Positions 4,172 through 15,652 of a stretch of 18,486 nt of DNA are shown piece by piece (the stretch's first letter is position 1; the number at the start of each line of letters is the position of its first letter). Location of the stretch: the IMG/VR virus record IMGVR_UViG_2681813135_000006; one strand, given 5' to 3'. The stretch is from a virus (Duplodnaviria; Heunggongvirae; Uroviricota; Caudoviricetes). Under the pieces are notes generated by a model that was not told the DNA's origin, ran no database searches, and worked only from the letters and a program-made list of their open reading frames with translations. The translations under genes and the position numbers were made by a program.

Positions 4172-4420
4172 TCAGACCGTTGATTTCATATTATCAGAAG
4201 GTTGGGTTACCCGGTAGCCGAGACGGTTAATAAACTGCATAAAACCATTAGGAGTAAAGACCTCTTCATCATCCAGCAAAGGCCGCATAGAAACCATGCC
4301 ATTGACGCGATAAATTAGATGCCTGCCCGATGAAGGAAAGCTAAACACCACGCAGCCGTCAGACCTTCTTACAATGTCATACCAGTTGTCTTCTGACGTT
4401 TGCAAAGCTGAATCACTCAC
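4172..4420 (-). CDS. Hypothetical 82-aa protein downstream of the dinI-like gene
   Basis: GTG start at 4420 with AGGGAG upstream; no family recognised. Confidence 0.45.
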   Translation of the reverse strand: MSDSALQTSEDNWYDIVRRSDGCVVFSFPSSGRHLIYRVNGMVSMRPLLDDEEVFTPNGFMQFINRLGYRVTQPSDNMKSTV

Positions 4421-4537
4421 ATTTATGTTCTCCCTTCGAGCGACTAACAGACGCGATTAAAGATTGTCGGCAGCAGCATCAGAGGGTTACGCAAATTGCG
4501 GTATTCTGAAAAATGCGCGCCAGCCTTAAGCGCAATT

Positions 4538-4771
4538 CTAATAAAACCAGTCGTCAGCGCTTTCCCAGGTATCCTGGAGGATTGATTCAATTTTCTTTTT
4601 ATCGTCCTTGTCACCACCAAAAACACTTAACCCATCGGCCCCGGCACGGCGGATTGTGAGCCTGCAATTGTCATAGTGATCATTCAGGCGCTTAAGCAGT
4701 TCTTTCTCCAGTGCTGGTACTGCGCCTTTAGGAAGTTCTTTCATGCGATCAATGGTTAATTCAACTTTCAT
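4538..4771 (-). CDS. dinI: DinI-like DNA-damage-inducible protein; start re-called to ATG at 4771
   Basis: MKVELTIDR...LSVFGGDKDDKKKIESILQDTWESADDWFY parallels E. coli DinI (MRIEVTI...ISEILQETWESADDWF) by recall. A LexA box lies immediately upstream. Confidence 0.85.
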   Translation of the reverse strand: MKVELTIDRMKELPKGAVPALEKELLKRLNDHYDNCRLTIRRAGADGLSVFGGDKDDKKKIESILQDTWESADDWFY

Positions 4772-4789
4772 AATGGCCCCCATTGCATG

Positions 4790-4809
4790 TACTGTGTTTT
4801 TATACAGTA
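4790..4809. promoter_or_regulatory. LexA (SOS) box, TACTGTGTTTTTATACAGTA, upstream of the dinI-like gene
   Basis: CTGT-N8-ACAG palindrome matching the E. coli consensus TACTGT(AT)4ACAGTA at 16 of 20 positions; 19 nt upstream of the dinI-like ATG and overlapping a plausible -10 region. Confidence 0.75.
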
Positions 4810-4871
4810 TACCTATGCGCGGAAATGATCAACGTTTTAAGAGCACAAATTGTTAATTTTCTGTCAGTTGT

Positions 4872-4899
4872 AAAAAAAGAAAACCCGCCGTAGCGGGTT
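4872..4899 (-). terminator. Rho-independent terminator on the minus strand
   Basis: Minus-strand RNA AACCCGC-UACG-GCGGGUU (perfect 7-bp stem) followed by UUCUUUUUUUU. Confidence 0.7.
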
Positions 4900-5262
4900 G
4901 AATTAGCAGTGTTATATTAAGCGGCAATTTCTTTCTGCCGGCACAATCCCGAGAGATTCGCCCTCTGTATCGCATCATCAATGAGCACCTGTATGACCAT
5001 GAGGCAAAGCGTTATCCAACTTGCATTCATCTTTTTCAATCAGCAAAGGAGTGGTTAGTGCTGTGAGTGGGCTTTGTTCACTTCATGGTAGATAAATCAG
5101 CTATGGATAAGTGATAAGAGGTGAAATCAATCCGAATTAACAACCTGAAGCACATTAATCGGAACACAGATATTAAAATCCTAAAGTCTAGTAACAAATA
5201 GCCGATATGAGATATTGCTTATCAGTTTAAAAATCATCTATTGAAAAAATGGGGGGGAGGCG

Positions 5263-5826
5263 TTGAAGCGAGTAGAGCGCGATTTTATCTGTCTGTTTAA
5301 TTGTGTGTGGTATCAAGATTTCCCTGTGTTCAAAGGTGAATATATCAACCGTTCCAACTGGACCATTCATGTTGGCCTGGTCATGCGCGAGTGTGCAAAG
5401 TTAATGGGCGCAAGAACATTTTTTGAACAAGGCGGGCGTACCGATGCGGTCCTACAATATCCAGACAATCAAATTTTAACCTATGTTGAGTGGGAGTATA
5501 ATCAGGCAGACAGAGATAGCGTTAACGAGTTAGACAAACTGCTTGAAAAAAACGACAAGTGCTATTTCTCCACATTCATCTCATATTGTCAGCATGAAAA
5601 CATCAATATTGTTATTGAAAAAGCAAGTAGAATATGGAGTGAAGCAAGCAGGCCTTTGATTTTTTTTCTTATCACCTATGAGCCTCAAACGAAAAAACGC
5701 CGCCATTTTTTAGAACTCAGAACTTATTTTTTCTCAAACGGCAAAAGAAAACTAGTTCGCAAACAACCTGCGCTTCCATGGGATATTGAGCAACGAAAAT
5801 ACAATGTCGAAGAAGATGCAGGATAG
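5263..5826 (+). CDS. Hypothetical 187-aa protein encoded in an AT-rich island on the opposite strand to the flanking phage operon (candidate moron/accessory gene)
   Basis: TTG start at 5263 immediately after a very strong SD (GGGGGGGAGG at 5251-5260). Visibly AT-rich coding sequence. No TM segment or family recognised. Confidence 0.6.
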   Translation: MKRVERDFICLFNCVWYQDFPVFKGEYINRSNWTIHVGLVMRECAKLMGARTFFEQGGRTDAVLQYPDNQILTYVEWEYNQADRDSVNELDKLLEKNDKCYFSTFISYCQHENINIVIEKASRIWSEASRPLIFFLITYEPQTKKRRHFLELRTYFFSNGKRKLVRKQPALPWDIEQRKYNVEEDAG

Positions 5827-6049
5827 AAGAGACATAAGGTTTTCACGACAGTCTCGTTCCGAGCCCTAACTAAAATATTCTGTTCGGAGCAACCAAATAG
5901 CTCTGGCTTTGCTGTGACCATGTTCGCGGTACCAACGCCTCTCTAGGTCCGCTTCTCGCTCATGGTGGACCAAAATCAAATCTAAAATGACGTGGCTAAG
6001 CGGGAGTACATAGTGAATGACAGGATGCTCCGGGCAGCACCATACTAAT

Positions 6050-6247
6050 TCAGTTCCCGTCAGAGGTAGGCGTTGCTTCATGATGGGATGAGCGCTCCCT
6101 CCAGACAATCCATGCGACAGCCGCCTCCCATGATATATATCCATTACCGCCATTTTTCGCTCTGCGGAGATTAACTGCATCACCAAACCTTTCAATGATG
6201 AATTTTTCAAATTCTATGCGTTTTTCTTCGTCGATTGTTGAATCCAT
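6050..6247 (-). CDS. Hypothetical small acidic protein (65 aa); may be the 5' part of a frameshifted gene continuing in another frame to 5866
   Basis: ATG at 6247 preceded by GGGGAAGG. The ORF-track entry 5866..6210 overlaps it in a second frame. Confidence 0.35.
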   Translation of the reverse strand: MDSTIDEEKRIEFEKFIIERFGDAVNLRRAKNGGNGYISWEAAVAWIVWRERSSHHEATPTSDGN

Positions 6248-6464
6248 ACCTTCCCCAGAAGAGTCCTACGAATCGCTCTTATTGCATAAAAAATAGCATA
6301 TACAATAGAGAGTGAAAAACCGACGTAGCGGGTTAACTTTATGTTACTCATGAGTCTTGTCTCGCTGCGACTTAAAAGCGGAACATTCTCGCGCAAGTTG
6401 CGTTGCTAAAGCTACGGGGTTGAATGGCTCTCCATGCCCATTTAAGAAGGCATGCGGTGTGTAG

Positions 6465-6493
6465 TTGAACGTTATTTAAAACACAGATAGAAT
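6465..6493 (+). promoter_or_regulatory. Putative sigma70 promoter for the secreted-protein gene
   Basis: -35 TTGAAC (6465-6470), 17-bp spacer, -10 TAGAAT (6488-6493), about 30 nt upstream of the ATG at 6527. Confidence 0.35.
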
Positions 6494-6526
6494 CAAGAAA
6501 AATCCTAAATAAATGGAATATTGTTT

Positions 6527-6907
6527 ATGGCTAAGAAAATCGCATTACTGGGCTTTTCTGCTCTTTTTGTTGCAAGTGTTGCTTTTGCTGAAACGACAAG
6601 TAACTGGGTTGAGGTTACTACAGCTGATGATGGCATTTTTTCAGCAAAAAAAGGCACATTTAGAAATGTAAAAGGTGATTCATCTGCCTTGTTCATGTAT
6701 CAAACAAAAAATAAAAAAGTAGAGTACTACAAAGTTAGTATTAAAGATGCCGACTGTGATAGTGGATATGGGGAGATAAGATTCTTCTATATGGATGGGA
6801 AATTAGCTTTCAAAGGTGATTATGTTGCTGATGGGAACAGTGTTGGCGCAGGTATTGGTGATTTTATGTGTGGAGTCAGAATTGGACTTAACACACAAAA
6901 AAGTTAA
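6527..6907 (+). CDS. Secreted/periplasmic protein of unknown function (126 aa, Sec signal peptide, 2 Cys)
   Basis: From ATG 6527: MAKKIALLGFSALFVASVAFA followed by ETT, a typical signal peptide with an AXA cleavage motif. Mature part is Gly/Asp/Lys-rich with two Cys. AT-rich; the TTG at 6521 in the ORF track is probably not the start. Confidence 0.7.
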   Translation: MAKKIALLGFSALFVASVAFAETTSNWVEVTTADDGIFSAKKGTFRNVKGDSSALFMYQTKNKKVEYYKVSIKDADCDSGYGEIRFFYMDGKLAFKGDYVADGNSVGAGIGDFMCGVRIGLNTQKS

Positions 6908-7321
6908 ATGAGGGGCATTTGTTAAAAAACAATAGCCCCACATTAGATCAATATTGGCTCCGGCATTTCTGGATAAAAGCTTCTATGCTACGGCGCTCAT
7001 AGCGAACAATCTTAGCGCTGAACTTTACACGGGGCCAATGTAGACCGGTGTCGGTGTTCTGTATTCCATTTACATAATGTTTTTTGCGTAATTCCCAGCT
7101 TCTGGCATACCTCGCCCGGAGTGAGGAGATCATCAGGTTGCTCAGTCATGTTATGCCTCGCTGTTATCTGGGGTGATGATTAGCAGCTTCCAGATGGCTG
7201 AGACATACATAGCCTGATGTTTCGCATCGACTAGGGCATTATGCATGTCACCTTCAAACGGCATGTCCCGAGTTCTCCCTTTTCGCCGCTTTCGCGTCGC
7301 ATATTCTCCAAACGGTATTTA

Positions 7322-10184: not shown

Positions 10185-10403
10185 CTACTTTGGTAATCCG
10201 TCAGTGGGATTTGGATAGAGATCAGGGCGCAGCTCGTGGGGGGTTACGCCTGTCATTTTGAAAATCGGGAAGATATAGCTTGGCGGGACGATCCCTTGGT
10301 CACGATTCTTCCAATGACTTACAGACATACTCGTCACACCAAGCGCGATGCTGAGCTTTCTGGCAGAGCCAGCGGCTTTAATTGCTTTATCGAGTGCGGA
10401 CAT
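10185..10403 (-). CDS. Cro/YdaS-like HTH regulator (72 aa), divergent from the repressor
   Basis: ATG at 10403 with AGGAG 6 nt upstream. HTH-like KAAGSARKLSIALGVTSMSVSHWKN. Position and size match cro/ydaS in an immunity region. Confidence 0.75.
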   Translation of the reverse strand: MSALDKAIKAAGSARKLSIALGVTSMSVSHWKNRDQGIVPPSYIFPIFKMTGVTPHELRPDLYPNPTDGLPK

Positions 10404-10505
10404 GTGCTTCTCCTGCTTATTGATAGCAGAAGTAAACCACAGATTTATACTTCATGCAAACTTTGGATTTATTGCGTGCATAAACCAAATATTTACAATG
10501 ACCAT
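10404..10505. promoter_or_regulatory. Divergent immunity-region promoter/operator segment between the Cro-like and repressor genes
   Basis: AT-rich 102-bp intergenic region. For the repressor: -35 TTGCGT (10472-10477), -10 TACAAT (10494-10499), with no SD before the ATG at 10506 (leaderless-like). Pseudo-palindromes such as TTATTGCGTGCATAA are candidate operators. Hexamer assignments are inference. Confidence 0.5.
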
Positions 10506-10895
10506 ATGAGAAAAGAAGAACCCAACCTCGTTCTGGTGGAGCGCCTTACTGAGATCACTGATCGCGGCGTTACCAAAGCAGACATGGCAAGAATAGCTGG
10601 AGTCACCCCTCAGGCCGTAAACGGCTGGTTCAAAAAAGGCGTGATTAGTAAGAAATCGGCACTGGCCATAGCCGACGCTGTTGGTATTTCTGTCGCCTGG
10701 CTACTCGGTGAAGACGTTGGGGAGAAAGACGGTCTCAAACCGGACGAACAGCGTTTGCTCGAGCTCTACCGCCAGTTACCGGAAGAAGAGCAGCAGAACA
10801 TGCTCCGCATTTTTGCGCTTCGCCTGAAAGAGTTAGATGAGCTGTACGAGAAGTACATGAAGGGTCGGATTCGATCGCAAGGTGAGCAAACCTAA
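10506..10895 (+). CDS. Prophage repressor, XRE-type HTH, 129 aa, without an S24 peptidase (autocleavage) domain; RacR/CI-like role
   Basis: ATG at 10506. HTH TKADMARIAGVTPQAVNGWFKKG; the C-terminal half is a charged helical region (LLELYRQLPEEEQQNMLRIFALRLKELDELYEKYMK). Divergent from the Cro-like gene. The ORF-track N-terminal extension (from 10236) crosses the promoter region and was rejected. Confidence 0.8.
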   Translation: MRKEEPNLVLVERLTEITDRGVTKADMARIAGVTPQAVNGWFKKGVISKKSALAIADAVGISVAWLLGEDVGEKDGLKPDEQRLLELYRQLPEEEQQNMLRIFALRLKELDELYEKYMKGRIRSQGEQT

Positions 10896-10959
10896 ACCAG
10901 TAGTATCTAATTCCATGTAATAAAAATATTTCAAGATTTAATATCTTCTGGAGGATTCG

Positions 10960-11241
10960 GTGTCTAAAGAAACAACCGTCGAACTTATGCATCTTAATGA
11001 TGTAATCGAAGCGAAAAATTTCATCGAGACCAATGCTGACGGTGTCGTAACAATCGGCACACAAAATGCCGGTTACGAAGTTTACAATTTTGTGTTCCTG
11101 AATAGCAGCCCGATCATCGGTACGGATAATGCGGATATAGTCGTCAAGGGCATGCAGCGAACCAAAGTTGTGTCTGTGACTTTAAGCAAACAAAAGGCTT
11201 ATGATTTTTATCAATCCTTAAAAAGTATGTTTGAGGAATAA
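10960..11241 (+). CDS. Hypothetical 93-aa soluble protein, first gene of an AT-rich pair downstream of the repressor
   Basis: GTG at 10960 with strong SD GGAGGA 4 nt upstream; no TM segment; no family recognised. Confidence 0.65.
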   Translation: MSKETTVELMHLNDVIEAKNFIETNADGVVTIGTQNAGYEVYNFVFLNSSPIIGTDNADIVVKGMQRTKVVSVTLSKQKAYDFYQSLKSMFEE

Positions 11242-11247
11242 TAATTG

Positions 11248-11769
11248 ATGGATGCGGCTCAATCATCTCTTGGTGAAGGGAAGTTATTGATTGCATATTC
11301 AGACCATAGCGGAGCTACAGTAGGCTTAGAGTTTTCATCAGTAGCTTCGAGCCAAGCAACCTTCCTTATGGGTGCTTGTAGTTTTGCCGCTTCGGATAAA
11401 CAAAAACGGATTGTCACATCAGTTGCTATGGATGATACTGAAATCATTCATACGTCAACTGAAGATGGAGGTGACGACATGGAAAAGAGATTGGCTATTC
11501 TTGAGGTTGAAGTTGCCCACATCAAGAAAGATGTTGCCGAGATAAAAAACACAGTTTCAAAAGTTGATACGACAGTGAATTCACTGGACAAAAATATGGC
11601 TGTAGTTTTGGAGAGGCTGTCTAGTATCAAAGAGTCTGTAGACAAAAAGCCCTCATCAGACACAGTGGACAAGAAAATCTCTGATGCTAAATTGGCGATT
11701 CTCTTAGGTGTCCCTGCGATTATCGCCATTGGTACAGGGCTGTACAAAGCTTTTATGCACTTCTTTTAG
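11248..11769 (+). CDS. Hypothetical 173-aa tail-anchored membrane protein with a central coiled-coil-like region
   Basis: ATG at 11248 (SD GAGGAA upstream), 6 nt after the previous stop. Heptad-like segment EKRLAILEVEVAHIKKDVAEIKNTVSKVDTTVNSLDKNMAVVLERLSSIKESV, then a single C-terminal hydrophobic helix LAILLGVPAIIAIGTGLY. AT-rich. A strong terminator follows. Confidence 0.7.
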   Translation: MDAAQSSLGEGKLLIAYSDHSGATVGLEFSSVASSQATFLMGACSFAASDKQKRIVTSVAMDDTEIIHTSTEDGGDDMEKRLAILEVEVAHIKKDVAEIKNTVSKVDTTVNSLDKNMAVVLERLSSIKESVDKKPSSDTVDKKISDAKLAILLGVPAIIAIGTGLYKAFMHFF

Positions 11770-11841
11770 TCAGATTTGGTCAATACGCCTGAGTTATAAG
11801 GCTCTCAGCTACTAACTCTGTCGCCTTCCCCGAACCTTCTC

Positions 11842-11869
11842 ATCCCGACCACGCGTCGGGATTTTTTTT
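11842..11869 (+). terminator. Rho-independent terminator ending the repressor-side operon
   Basis: ATCCCGAC-cacgc-GTCGGGAT (8-bp perfect stem) followed by T8. Confidence 0.8.
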
Positions 11870-11943
11870 GCCTGCGATTCTGCAGACGTGTCACAAAACC
11901 CAGCCACATAAACCTCAGATTTACAATTAACACTAACCTTAAG

Positions 11944-11972
11944 TTGACACATATATAAACCAGTGATTTAAT
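11944..11972 (+). promoter_or_regulatory. Putative sigma70 promoter (early-left-like) driving the kil/recE/recT side
   Basis: -35 TTGACA (11944-11949), 17-bp spacer, -10 TTTAAT (11967-11972). An ATTTACAAT motif just upstream (11919-11927) is also present in the immunity region (10491-10499). Confidence 0.45.
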
Positions 11973-12224
11973 CTAACTCACCAAGACGCACCACGAACCA
12001 CCCAGGCATGGAGCCCACGAAGTAGCCGTCCGGGGCATACGAAAACCGGAATGAGGTGGTGATATTAACGCGCAGTAGGTTTGAAACGTTCCGCCAGCCT
12101 GGCGACAAGGGCAAACACAGAAGTGAGCTTCGCGGTGGTGAATTGCAGAGTTAAAACGCTCAACTGTGAAGATCAGCGTCACGGCACCACCAGCGAAGTT
12201 CACTCAGCAATAGTGGAGAACATC

Positions 12225-12431
12225 ATGGTTCATCAGCACTACGGTACACAGACAGTAAACCGCGGCGCAGTTCAGCCGGGGATGCTTGTAAAACACAAAG
12301 ACTCAACCTGGACCGCATCTGCTAACGCACGCGGTCGCCTGTATCTTCACCGTGGCATCGAACGTACCTACACCAAAGATTTGCTGGTTGAGGTTTATCT
12401 AAACGGTTTAGGACATGGCCTTAGCCATTAA
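12225..12431 (+). CDS. Kil-like small protein (KilR-family, FtsZ-inhibitor type), 68 aa
   Basis: ATG at 12225 with SD GGAG 4 nt upstream. MVHQHYGTQ...ASANARGRLYLHRG resembles the recalled Rac KilR pattern. The ORF-track entry with a TTG start at 12081 is probably an over-extension. Confidence 0.55.
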   Translation: MVHQHYGTQTVNRGAVQPGMLVKHKDSTWTASANARGRLYLHRGIERTYTKDLLVEVYLNGLGHGLSH

Positions 12432-12604: not shown

Positions 12605-12742
12605 CGAAAACCCCGCGCAAGGCGAGATTCACGTCCGGTGCCACCGACCAAAGTTACACCGGAATTTATACCAAACCAAAAAACATCCAATGGGCGCTAT
12701 CTCTGGCCCGGGGATTCTAACACTCAAAAAAGAGGATCTCAC

Positions 12743-15652
12743 ATGGAATTTTTCCATCTGATAAAAGCCAGTCAGAAGTCTGGCAAGAAAGATGCAGTGA
12801 TTTGGTTCACTGCGAAAAGTGTAGCGCGCGCCAATCTCCAACTCGATGTGGCACTGGAAGAAGCCGGAATTGAAGAAACTGGCCGCGGTAAAGATTATGC
12901 CAAACCAATCCGCACCGATTTCCCGGTATATGACGACCTGCCGGAAGAAGGCGCAGTGGATTACACCTGGTGCAAACGCTACGAACTGCAGAACGATGAC
13001 CGCACCTGGATGCCAAAAGTCACAGCTGAAAACTCTGACGAGAAAACGGCTCAGACCGTTGATAGTCACATAACTACTGAGTCAACGCTGCCAGAAACCG
13101 CTGGCATCACGCTGGACGAACACGACGACGACTCAACCCTCTACCCGGTAGTGCAGATGCCGTTTCGTAAGCAACTGCTTTCCCAGTTCACCGCCGACGA
13201 ACTGCGCCACCACGTAACCCGCGAAGAGTACGAAGCTATCGGCGCGCTGGAGATGGACACTGATAACAGTTACGTCCAGAACTTGCTGTTAGCTGCTGAG
13301 AACTGCCCGGACGTGAAGGGTTACGACACCAAAGACCTGTGGCGCTACACCGATGCCATTCGCAAAGTGTTCAGCCAGGACAAGCGTCACGAACTCGCGC
13401 TGGTACTCCGTTTCACCAGAATGTGGGCGGCGACTGATTACATTGACCGTGGCATCCTGGCGCGTGAATGGGCTGCCGGTAATCACATCAGTAGTGTTCA
13501 GCGTACTGATTCCGGAACCAATGCCAACGGCGGTTACGTCACTGACCGTGGACCTGATGCATACCATACCCTTGACACTCTCGATTTAGAGATTGCATGT
13601 GCCCTTCTGCCTATGGACTTCAACCACTTCGAGATCCCGGGCAGCATTCTTCGTCGCGCTAAAGAAATCGTGACCAAAAAAGAAGAACCGTGGAAATCAT
13701 GGAGCAGCATTCTGCGCAATCAACCCGGCGTTCTTGGCGTTAACCGCACAGCTATTTTTAACCTGATACGTATCGCGCCGGAAAATATTCATCTAACTCC
13801 TGTCGCTCACCTGGAGTTTGTTAACCGGACCATGACTGCTGCGTTTAATGCTGCTGTTGAGTTATTGCCATTGCATGAAGCTGAGCCCGCAACACAGGAA
13901 ATTCCCCAACCTGAAAGTAAGGAGTCTCCACGCAAACCCTTCTGCACTCACGAAGAGAACCTGCAACGCGTACGTGAAGAAGAAGCACGCCGCCGCGCAG
14001 AGGAAGCGACAGCACAACCACATAAAGCCGAACAAGAACTGGTTAAAAATGTCGGCAACGGAATATTCGATGTTACGGCTTTACTGCAGAACTCAGCAAC
14101 TCATGGCACGAAACAGGCTACGGAAACCACCAGCAATGTGCAGGTTCAAGAAACTGTCAGTGATGAAAAAAATGTTGGTAATGAAATGCAGTCAGGCGAA
14201 AGCAGTCTGGAAACTGGTGAAGAGTCACATCCCGGCCAGCAGGCCGATGTAAACCAAAATACGGAATCTGTCGCTCAAAATAGCGATTCTGTAAACCAGA
14301 CTGAACCAGTTTTGGCACACGTCGAGCCAGAGGCGCAATCTGACGAACAAGCTGTTTTTTACCCCGATTACTTCGAGCCTGGGCGCTATGAAGGTCTGCC
14401 GAACGAGGTTTACCACGCTGCCAACGGCATCAGTTCCACCCAGGTAAAAGATGCGCGCGTTTCGCTGATGTACTTCAATGCGCGCCACGTTGAGAAAACC
14501 ATCGTCAAAGAGCGCTCCTCAGTGCTGGACATGGGAAACCTGGTACATGCGCTGGCGTTGCAGCCAGAACAGCTCGATGAAGAATTTAGCGTTGAACCCG
14601 TAATTCCGGAAGGTGCATTTACCACCACGGCAACGATCCGCGCGTTTATTGATGAGTACAACGCCAGCCTGCCAGCGCAACTGAGCGCAGACGATATCAA
14701 AGCTTTGCTGGATGAATACAACGCCACCCTGCCAGCGCTGGTGCCGCTGGGCGCTAGCCTGGATGAAACGGCGCAGAACTATATGGCGCTGCCAGCTGAA
14801 TTCCAACGTATCGATGCAGATCAGAAGAAGACAGCAACAGCAATGAAGGCGTGCATCAAAGAGTACAACGCCACCCTGCCAGCGCAGATTAAAACCAGCG
14901 GCAGCCGCGACGCACTACTCGAACAACTTGCGATTATCAATCCTGACCTGGTCGCGCAGGAAGCTCAGAAGCTGCAACCGCTGAAAGTCTCTGGCACGAA
15001 GGCCGATCTGATTCAGGCCGTGAAGGCAGTCAAACCAGATGCAGTGTTCGCCGACGAGCTGCTCGATGCGTGGCGCAACAACCCGGAAGGGAAAGTGCTG
15101 GTTACCCACCAGCAACTTGCCACCGCGCAGGCAATTCAGTCAGCACTGCTCTCGCACCCGACCGCAGGCATGCTGCTAACCCACCCGAGCCGCGCCGTTG
15201 AGGTGAGCTACTTTGGCTTTGACGAGGAGACGGGACTGGAAGTTCGTGTGCGCCCTGACCTTGAGATCGACCTAGACGGCGTGCGTATCGGTGCTGACCT
15301 GAAAACCATCAGCATGTGGAATGTTAAGCAGGAAAGCCTGCGCGCCAGGCTACACCGGGAAATTATTGAACGTGATTATCACCTGAGCGCGGCTATGTAC
15401 TGCGAAACCGCAGCGCTGGATCAGTTCTTCTGGATTTTCGTCAACAAAGACGAGAACTACCACTGGATCGCCATCATCGAGGCATCCGCTGAACTACTGG
15501 AGCTGGGTATGCTCGAGTACCGCAAAGCGATGCGCAATATCGCAACCGGATTCGACACAGGTGAATGGCCAGCGCCAATCACTGCTGACTACACCGACGA
15601 ACTGAACGACTTCGACCTGCGCCGCCTTGAAGCGCTGCGTACTCAGGCATAA
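12743..15652 (+). CDS. recE: RecE-like exonuclease (exodeoxyribonuclease VIII family), 969 aa; start re-called to ATG at 12743
   Basis: N-terminus MEFFHLIKASQKSGKKDAVIWF...FPVYDDLPEEGAVDYTWCKRYEL parallels recalled E. coli RecE. Long acidic/Gln-rich middle region. C-terminal region (YFGFDEETGLEVRVRPDLEIDLDGVRIGADLKTI...) is consistent with the RecE nuclease domain. SD AGAGGA 6 nt upstream of the ATG. Confidence 0.85.
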   Translation: MEFFHLIKASQKSGKKDAVIWFTAKSVARANLQLDVALEEAGIEETGRGKDYAKPIRTDFPVYDDLPEEGAVDYTWCKRYELQNDDRTWMPKVTAENSDEKTAQTVDSHITTESTLPETAGITLDEHDDDSTLYPVVQMPFRKQLLSQFTADELRHHVTREEYEAIGALEMDTDNSYVQNLLLAAENCPDVKGYDTKDLWRYTDAIRKVFSQDKRHELALVLRFTRMWAATDYIDRGILAREWAAGNHISSVQRTDSGTNANGGYVTDRGPDAYHTLDTLDLEIACALLPMDFNHFEIPGSILRRAKEIVTKKEEPWKSWSSILRNQPGVLGVNRTAIFNLIRIAPENIHLTPVAHLEFVNRTMTAAFNAAVELLPLHEAEPATQEIPQPESKESPRKPFCTHEENLQRVREEEARRRAEEATAQPHKAEQELVKNVGNGIFDVTALLQNSATHGTKQATETTSNVQVQETVSDEKNVGNEMQSGESSLETGEESHPGQQADVNQNTESVAQNSDSVNQTEPVLAHVEPEAQSDEQAVFYPDYFEPGRYEGLPNEVYHAANGISSTQVKDARVSLMYFNARHVEKTIVKERSSVLDMGNLVHALALQPEQLDEEFSVEPVIPEGAFTTTATIRAFIDEYNASLPAQLSADDIKALLDEYNATLPALVPLGASLDETAQNYMALPAEFQRIDADQKKTATAMKACIKEYNATLPAQIKTSGSRDALLEQLAIINPDLVAQEAQKLQPLKVSGTKADLIQAVKAVKPDAVFADELLDAWRNNPEGKVLVTHQQLATAQAIQSALLSHPTAGMLLTHPSRAVEVSYFGFDEETGLEVRVRPDLEIDLDGVRIGADLKTISMWNVKQESLRARLHREIIERDYHLSAAMYCETAALDQFFWIFVNKDENYHWIAIIEASAELLELGMLEYRKAMRNIATGFDTGEWPAPITADYTDELNDFDLRRLEALRTQA

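Follow-up and report, generated by a model that had tools for sequence, protein, structure and literature searches.

What is the role of two adjacent AT-rich genes that lie directly behind the repressor gene of a lambdoid prophage? This question is raised by positions 10960 to 11769 of the IMG/VR virus record IMGVR_UViG_2681813135_000006, an 18,486-nucleotide (nt) stretch of Caudoviricetes DNA that was analysed at its full length (hereafter, the window). An earlier sequence-only reading of the window had proposed that the pair, located where lambda carries rexA-rexB, is a candidate exclusion or defence system. Here, we show that the two genes, which we call A and B, constitute a mobile cassette, inserted after the repressor gene and before the immunity terminator, and that throughout their small family the one is inherited with the other. 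We propose, with a probability of roughly 0.45, that A-B is a Rex-like exclusion module made of unrelated proteins; it is solely the position and the architecture of the pair that suggest a defence function.

The features that define the pair are the following:

10960-11241, + strand: gene A, GTG start, 93 amino acids (aa), acidic soluble protein, pI 4.9
11248-11769, + strand: gene B, ATG start, 173 aa; an alternative start at 11245 gives 174 aa
10886-11852, + strand: cargo cassette, 967 bp, delimited by breaks of homology with sibling prophages (blastn against L022 and L023)

The coordinates and hydropathy profiles of both open reading frames (ORFs) agree with the earlier description of a soluble 93-aa protein and a membrane-anchored 173-aa protein, encoded on the repressor strand and separated by 6 nt from the stop codon of A to the ATG of B at 11248.

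A mobile cassette behind the repressor gene

The limits of the cassette were obtained by comparison with sibling prophages. The ET881 prophage (L022) is 99.6% identical to the window up to position 10885 and 98.9% identical from position 11853; therefore, the cassette in the window comprises positions 10886 to 11852. On the left, the junction precedes the stop codon of the repressor gene by 10 nt; on the right, it falls inside the stem of the terminator. Behind the 99.6% identical switch of ET881, the same slot (L022 4033-5436) encodes one 467-aa protein instead of A-B; this protein has no match in Pfam, NCBIfam or PADLOC, and we consider it a second defence candidate. In the 210205630 sibling (L023), the junctions are nearly the same and the sequences flanking them are ~84% identical to the window; its slot (L023 4116-5518) encodes a DUF6932 protein and a 310-aa protein, unrelated to A and B, that match the PADLOC candidate PDC-M63A/B (8.9e-40 and 8.9e-44). 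Three different cassettes use the same junctions and one of them is a PADLOC defence candidate; as judged from the matches of the PDC-M63 pair, the slot recruits defence-type cargo. In published work, the lambdoid cI-N interval, home to rexAB and to the abortive-infection gene bstA, is described as a mosaic-diversity hotspot (PMC8585504; PMC7067206; both citing Degnan et al. 2007). The BstA protein of Salmonella BTP1, whose gene shares this post-repressor hotspot, is unrelated to A and B; it is a single large protein that localizes to phage DNA replication sites and has its own anti-BstA DNA element.

The base composition of the pair, which the sequence-only reading had judged visibly AT-rich but had not computed, sets it apart from its flanks. 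The GC contents of A and B are 39.7% and 42.0%, respectively, vs. 51.8% for the repressor gene, 52.9% for recE and 50.8% for the window, and the GC content at third codon positions is 0.44 for A and 0.39 for B (vs. 0.57). Such a foreign, AT-rich makeup is typical of morons. Over three homologous pairs, the proportion of nonsynonymous differences in A (pN, 0.18-0.41) is far below that of synonymous differences (pS, 0.85-0.88, with synonymous sites saturated), and the dN/dS of B, also over three homologous pairs, is 0.13-0.24. Because pN lies far below pS and the orthologues of both proteins have been detected by mass spectrometry, A and B are genuine coding genes.

The immunity operon

The position of the pair was defined with respect to the following elements:

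10506-10895, + strand: prophage repressor, 129 aa (ATG 10506) or 139 aa (RefSeq GTG 10476), DicA/RacR-like helix-turn-helix (HTH) protein
10433-10447 and 10481-10495, no strand assigned: OR-side operators, two TAAACCnnnnATTTA copies between the divergent cro-like gene and the repressor
11842-11869, + strand: intrinsic terminator (timm equivalent), 8-bp stem (5 GC), 5-nt loop, T8, closing repressor-A-B
11909-11923 and 11956-11970, no strand assigned: OL-side operators, two further TAAACCnnnnATTTA copies, just past the terminator

The 18.5-kb window contains exactly four copies of TAAACCnnnnATTTA, vs. 0.24 expected from shuffled sequences, and none of 200 shuffles reached this number. Given their starts at 10433, 10481, 11909 and 11956, the repressor-A-B-terminator unit is bracketed by an OR-like and an OL-like operator pair. 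A and B thus lie on the repressor strand, between the repressor gene and the immunity terminator and inside the OR-OL interval, upstream of a leftward early operon (kilR, ydaE, recE, recT); the rexAB-equivalent position first proposed for the pair is therefore borne out. The terminator, described in the same reading as strong, has a dG of -12.6 kcal/mol (z = -2.8 vs. shuffles). A promoter and terminator scan of the repressor-to-A interval revealed no terminator and no convincing promoter. Since nothing separates the two genes, the simplest reading of this layout is that A-B would be transcribed together with the repressor, from the repressor promoter.

Lambda RexAB has the same slot and layout (repressor, two genes, terminator, OL/PL), and it likewise consists of one soluble and one membrane protein that are expressed in lysogens, in the case of A-B as judged by their orthologues. 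The proteins themselves differ. RexA is a DNA-binding protein of 279 aa, vs. the 93 aa of A, and RexB is reported to be a polytopic ion channel, whereas B has one C-terminal transmembrane (TM) helix and a cytoplasmic coiled coil. B has no RexB match in Pfam or PADLOC, and our literature search found no report of exclusion of T4 rII or other phages by A-B lysogens. Similarly, neither A nor B matches the SieB family in Pfam, PHROGs or NCBIfam; the VT1-Sakai prophage, which has an A-B pair, carries a separate sieB next to N.

Gene A

Gene A is preceded by a GGAGG sequence located 6 nt upstream of its GTG start at 10960. This start is backed by a full-length match to phrog_12039 (residues 1-93 of 93; 1.6e-47) and by homologues that are uniformly 93 aa long; the RefSeq version of 84 aa, which starts at ATG 10987, is probably too short. 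The product has no hydrophobic segment (maximum Kyte-Doolittle hydropathy over 19 residues, KD19, of 1.0). Its AlphaFold2 (AF2) model, with a mean predicted local distance difference test score (pLDDT) of 83.8, predicts three long antiparallel beta-strands (28-76) followed by a C-terminal helix (77-92). The N-terminus carries the motif E-x-K-N-[FY]-x-E-T-N-A-D, conserved yet predicted to be unstructured.

The A family is tiny. An exhaustive HMMER scan of 1.84 billion representatives gave 18 matches, ~13 of them genuine (85-103 aa). Four long matches (621-1334 aa, in 4-11 stretches) were rejected as repeat proteins that pile up marginal scores; P0080, the long match with a clear Pfam assignment, consists of fn3 repeats. 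A has no match in Pfam, NCBIfam, PADLOC or PDB sequences, and a Foldseek search of its model against the PDB returned nothing under an E-value of 0.08, the nearest structures being levivirus coat proteins. In a viral structure library, the sole close neighbour is one unnamed 93-aa viral protein (TM-score 0.74). We take the weak structural neighbours of A to be folds that form intertwined dimers; on this basis, A may be a dimer.

Gene B

The domain layout of B was derived from the family alignment and from the secondary structure of an AF2 model, which has low confidence (pLDDT 58.6) and was used for secondary structure alone. An N-terminal domain (residues ~10-58; beta-beta-alpha-beta) is followed by a Gly/Asp-rich linker (59-77), a coiled coil (78-132), an invariant KKPS sequence (133-136), a juxtamembrane helix and a TM segment (~149-167). 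The coiled coil is unbroken over ~7.5 heptads, the a/d positions of which, as read from the sequence, are L82, L85, V89, I92, V96, I99, V103, V106, V110, L113, M117, V120, L124, I127 and V131. The hydropathy profile has a single hydrophobic segment, at the extreme C-terminus (147-165; KD19 of 1.96). Because lysines precede the TM segment and just ~6 residues follow it, B is predicted to be a tail-anchored inner-membrane protein with its N-terminus inside and its bulk in the cytoplasm.

B matches phrog_12602 over residues 1-147 (2.7e-54) and phrog_3556 over residues 63-173 (3.2e-28). Otherwise, searches of Pfam, NCBIfam, PADLOC, PHROGs and PDB sequences returned matches of the coiled-coil type only; those in PADLOC were restricted to the coiled-coil region, with E-values of at least 9e-4, and corresponded to internal parts of LmuB, DruC and JetA. 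The assignments of B as LmuB, DruC, JetA, SlyX, IcmG or SpiroCoCo were rejected; all of them were far under the curated cut-offs, where these exist, and confined to residues ~50-150. The possibility that the N-terminal domain of B is a duplicated copy of A was also rejected (hhalign probability of 0.1%). Neither protein had been recognised in the initial reading, and our family, PADLOC and PDB-sequence searches of both, with structure searches of A, likewise found no characterised homologue; the PADLOC check of the locus (PADLOC-DB 2.0), which that reading had recommended, gave no significant system match (no hits for A, coiled-coil noise for B).

In its core, i.e., a heptad coiled coil with a C-terminal TM segment, B is built like the XhlA-type proteins of the PBSX lysis module and other short coiled-coil/TM phage proteins. 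B matches phrog_937 ('hemolysin'), over residues 77-133 only, with 1.4e-5 and phrog_1193 with 0.006; Pfam XhlA is absent from its matches at E <= 1. Unlike XhlA, B has an additional N-terminal domain, the KKPS sequence, a dedicated partner (A) and a location in the immunity region rather than in a lysis cassette.

Distribution and linkage of the pair

Among 5,426 complete E. coli genomes, 13 carry chromosomal DNA at least 99.7% identical to positions 10400-12000 of the window. In one of these 13, KL53 (L030 2349-3933), an insertion sequence of the IS3 type lies inside gene B and cuts it after ~119 codons, with loss of the membrane anchor. This insertion could reflect chance or a cost of gene B.

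Homologous pairs occupy the corresponding position in other phages. In phage HK544, which has lambda immunity (EF120455), the pair takes the place of lambda rexAB within lambda-like flanks; according to the GenBank annotation, it is flanked by a lambda-type cI on one side and by 'Timm', oL3-oL1 and pL on the other. At its right end, the HK544 cassette shares 97% identity with the DNA at the lambda rexB end in K-12 lambda lysogens, and the HK544-type pair is found in 93 of the 5,426 genomes (coverage of at least 80%). In VT1-Sakai (Sp15), the Stx1 prophage of E. coli O157:H7 Sakai, the pair ECs2991/ECs2992 lies between cI and the annotated pRM terminator. By tblastn, the HK544 and VT1-Sakai homologues are 74-75% identical to A and 55% identical to B, and they are adjacent and in the same order. 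Based on the homology of both proteins and on their adjacency, the A-B pair belongs with the ECs2991/ECs2992-like pair (phrog_12039 and phrog_12602). These are true homologues with the gene order, the 6-nt spacing and the place behind the repressor found in the window; they differ in having a lambda cI or Sp15 cI upstream, vs. a short DicA-like repressor here, and a B protein whose C-terminal half is replaced, with another TM tail variant. Consistently, the DNA homology of B to the HK544/Sakai gene ends at position 11527, at ~codon 93, which makes B a mosaic gene. In the B family as a whole, three unrelated C-terminal TM tails are found on the same N-terminal domain and coiled-coil start.

The linkage of the two genes is strict. 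Wherever the context of an A homologue could be read, even at 28% identity, the next gene downstream was B-like (identities to A: Cronobacter, 66%; Rahnella, 36%; P0081, 32%; P0086, 30%; P0089, 28%). In several homologues, the spacing between the called genes is 3-15 nt, or they overlap by 1-4 nt. All of the pairs examined except that of Rahnella have an HTH repressor directly upstream, divergent from a cro-like gene. As to whether the pair is conserved and always adjacent to a repressor, a check suggested in the sequence-only reading, the conservation of the pair held for every A homologue examined, and the adjacency failed for the Rahnella pair, which has no upstream repressor. The upstream repressors form at least six groups with little or no mutual similarity, both S24-containing and S24-less, so the module is not tied to one switch.

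This diversity bears on the possibility that A and/or B regulate the life cycle of their own phage, tuning the lysis-lysogeny switch, induction or the timing of lysis as RexA or the XhlA-like holin partners do. Such a second role has been reported for lambda RexA (PMC11077077). In addition to this precedent, the layout points to co-transcription of the pair with the repressor, and the core of B weakly matches the PHROG 'hemolysin' (XhlA-like) family, at the E-value given above, and 'holin' (0.07). These PHROG matches, however, cover the coiled coil only and are probably compositional, and Pfam XhlA is unmatched. Moreover, the pair is found with six or more dissimilar repressors, with and without S24, and the siblings with the same switch have no A-B; therefore, A-B is not an integral part of the switch, and we consider a regulatory role of this kind improbable.

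Shorter B-like proteins (100-148 aa) retain the coiled coil, KKPS and the TM segment but have other N-termini, and they pair with different small upstream genes (87, 139 or 147 aa), again just past repressors. The version composed of 87-aa and 147-aa proteins is present in 198-205 of the 5,426 genomes. A comparison of the 87-aa family with the A profile over 82 columns gave an hhalign E-value of 3.7e-4 with a probability of only 36%, and the 87-aa partner is possibly a remote homologue of A. Together, the A-B family and its shorter relatives occur in ~5-6% of complete E. coli genomes (13 + 93 + ~200 of 5,426).

B-like proteins are also found in other contexts. In Pantoea (L019/L020 3974-4276 and L018 3567-4306), proteins of ~100 aa are encoded by stand-alone chromosomal genes beside a conserved gene of 292-294 aa, in one case in a tandem duplication with a 99-aa coiled-coil/TM gene. 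In Serratia (L015 3556-4300), a B-like gene lies behind the gene of a 119-aa CxxC-motif protein, in the apparent tail-gene region of a prophage.

Expression of the orthologues

Expression in lysogens, which the initial reading had asked to be examined, is documented for the orthologues in published proteomics of uninduced O157:H7; this evidence concerns proteins at 55-75% identity and not the window's own genes. Both orthologues were detected without prophage induction in two O157:H7 proteomic studies. ECs2991 (10 kDa), the orthologue of A, is among the proteins identified in O157:H7 cultures in rumen fluid (PMC3936929), and the orthologue of B was found in a high-molecular-weight fraction that enriches membrane proteins, which is explained by its C-terminal TM helix. 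A proposal that the B orthologue is a lipoprotein, based on the motif MKAC44S (PMC3210124), was rejected because the protein has no N-terminal signal peptide and the Cys is not invariant.

One alternative is a non-abortive superinfection exclusion that the cell survives: at the inner face of the inner membrane, the membrane-anchored A-B complex would stop the genome of an incoming phage from entering, or would capture one of its injected or early proteins. The orthologues are expressed in lysogens and membrane-associated, the slot is one where related prophages carry exclusion genes, and B is predicted to combine a membrane anchor with a cytoplasmic binding head. The entry blockers T4 Imm/Sp, P22 SieA, HK97 gp15, Cor and Llp are periplasm-exposed or polytopic. 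B, unlike these, leaves ~6 residues outside, and no homology of the pair to known entry blockers was found in PADLOC, Pfam or PHROGs. We regard entry or early-protein blocking as unlikely.

The identification of ECs2991 in rumen-fluid cultures fits, in turn, a lysogenic-conversion factor that would alter the physiology of the host (envelope or stress tolerance, or fitness in stationary phase or in the gut), as host tail-anchored proteins such as ElaB/YqjD or the morons bor and lom do. The predicted build of B, a cytoplasmic coiled coil with a C-terminal TM segment, would be shared with host stress proteins, and the stand-alone chromosomal B-like cores of Pantoea point in the same direction. 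Nevertheless, there is no sequence match of the DUF883/ElaB type, and the tight linkage to many repressor types, together with the presence of a defence candidate at identical junctions, argues for a phage-phage conflict. A conversion factor is thus a rather unlikely alternative to the Rex-like module.

Proposed function and its weighing

According to our proposal, the prophage would express A-B alongside its repressor during lysogeny, and other phages would be excluded in a Rex-like manner. The coiled coil would make B an oligomer and would hold its small N-terminal domain ~8 nm into the cytoplasm, where A, probably as a dimer, would dock on it. The docking is proposed because the N-terminal domain changes together with the partner gene: every A-family gene is accompanied by this domain, and a different upstream partner comes with a different N-terminus. 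Upon infection by another phage, the cytoplasmic head formed by A and the N-terminal domain might sense a phage product, and the signal might run down the coiled coil to the conserved TM helices; the membrane would then be disturbed, by depolarisation or premature lysis, and the infection aborted. Its own prophage would be spared, given that transcription of the module from the repressor promoter would stop on induction. The sensing, signalling and membrane-damage steps are all putative.

Several facts favour a Rex-like module: an AT-rich cassette in the rex slot, the strict linkage of its two genes, its alternation with a defence candidate, the expression of the orthologues and the fractionation of the B orthologue. 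Other observations weigh against it. Searches of the literature with the locus tags, the accessions and the name of the phage turned up no functional study of either protein, and no phenotype is known for any family member. A and B have no sequence or fold similarity to RexA, RexB, SieB, BstA or the PADLOC models. RexB has four TM segments, whereas B has one TM helix and hardly any periplasmic portion, so a pore-forming role is speculative; in addition, the TM tail of B is inconstant, and the existence of three unrelated variants is at least as compatible with an anchor as with an effector. Some B-like cores are not linked to a repressor, namely the stand-alone genes of Pantoea chromosomes and the gene in the Serratia tail-gene region. 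Finally, the proposed A-B contact derives from co-variation only, and the model of B is of low confidence (pLDDT 58.6). The single TM helix, the interchangeable tails and the stand-alone B-like genes weaken the idea of a TM effector, which is why the three alternatives discussed above are retained with the probabilities given there.

At a broader level, we tentatively suggest that A-B and its shorter relatives (87-aa plus 147-aa) may constitute a new superfamily of two-component systems, linked to repressors, that act by abortive infection or exclusion through a tail-anchored coiled-coil effector. The design of such an effector would be unlike that of any described defence system.

Elements of this kind, i.e., accessory or defence genes that occupy the cI-N hotspot and are expressed in lysogens, are already known, and the HK544 pair has been annotated in GenBank since 2007, at the rex position, as 'conserved hypothetical'. 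The novelty lies in two proteins that resemble no described defence component and in a family that occurs at the above frequency in complete E. coli genomes. A-B is a well-supported and easily testable candidate, not surprising to a specialist and not a demonstrated system; it can be tested immediately with existing strains. If A-B excludes phages, it would be a mechanistically new system, composed of a tail-anchored coiled-coil membrane protein and a small soluble partner, and it would join the short list of lambdoid immunity-operon defences (rexAB, bstA), of which RexAB, even after more than 60 years, is not well understood (PMC8585504). Its carriage by an O157:H7 Shiga-toxin (Stx) prophage and by the laboratory phage HK544 could affect the competition between Stx phages and the outcomes of phage therapy. 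Additionally, more candidate cargo can be collected by way of the slot junctions, which lie at the 3' end of the repressor gene and in the terminator stem; examples are the ET881 467-aa protein and the PDC-M63 pair.

Repressor, promoters and prophage context

Two putative promoters, both read by eye, flank the unit:

10471-10499: PRM-like promoter, TTGCGT-17 nt-TACAAT, overlapping the second OR copy
TTGACA at 11934, 17 nt, TTTAAT: PL-like promoter, between the OL copies, directed toward kilR

The PRM-like promoter scores below the threshold of the promoter scan. The repressor ATG at 10506 sits 7 nt past its -10 element, and the repressor mRNA would be leaderless or near-leaderless, like that of lambda cI from PRM. 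The RefSeq start of the repressor (GTG 10476) falls inside this putative promoter. The PL-like promoter reads into kilR (12225-12431), ydaE, recE and recT; the kilR product matches a KilR-like FtsZ inhibitor (3.6e-17), and that of recE matches Exonuc_VIII.

The repressor matches HTH_3 (1.5e-6), Phage_CI_repr (8.6e-4), the DicA subfamily (1.9e-8) and phrog_8 (6e-17), and its gene is divergent from a YdaS/Cro-like and a YdaT/CII-like gene. It is short and has no S24 peptidase (self-cleavage) domain; thus, induction of the prophage presumably does not proceed by RecA-stimulated autocleavage. No induction mechanism, e.g., an antirepressor, is evident in the window.

In NCTC11023, the element is a Rac-like lambdoid prophage adjoining kch/cls. 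The gene order of the prophage is terminase, lysis genes, antiterminator, replication genes, ydaT, ydaS, repressor, two hypotheticals, kilR-like gene, ydaE, recE, recT and integrase. The lysis genes (holin, lysozyme, LysC) of the near-identical NCTC11023 prophage lie ~9-10 kb upstream of the A-B pair. In the window, recE (12638-15652) is a single intact ORF of 1,004 aa; the RefSeq annotation of NCTC11023 splits it into a RecE family gene and a PD-(D/E)XK domain gene, which suggests a frameshift or a sequence difference in that assembly. An Rfam scan of the window matched no RNA family.

A second AT-rich island (42% GC) extends over positions 4200-7200, between the late-operon and the replication genes. 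It includes two + strand ORFs oriented opposite to their neighbours, at 5263-5826 (187 aa) and 6521-6907 (128 aa), which had no match in Pfam, NCBIfam or PADLOC; both are probable morons without an assigned function, and the 128-aa product has a signal-peptide-like N-terminus.

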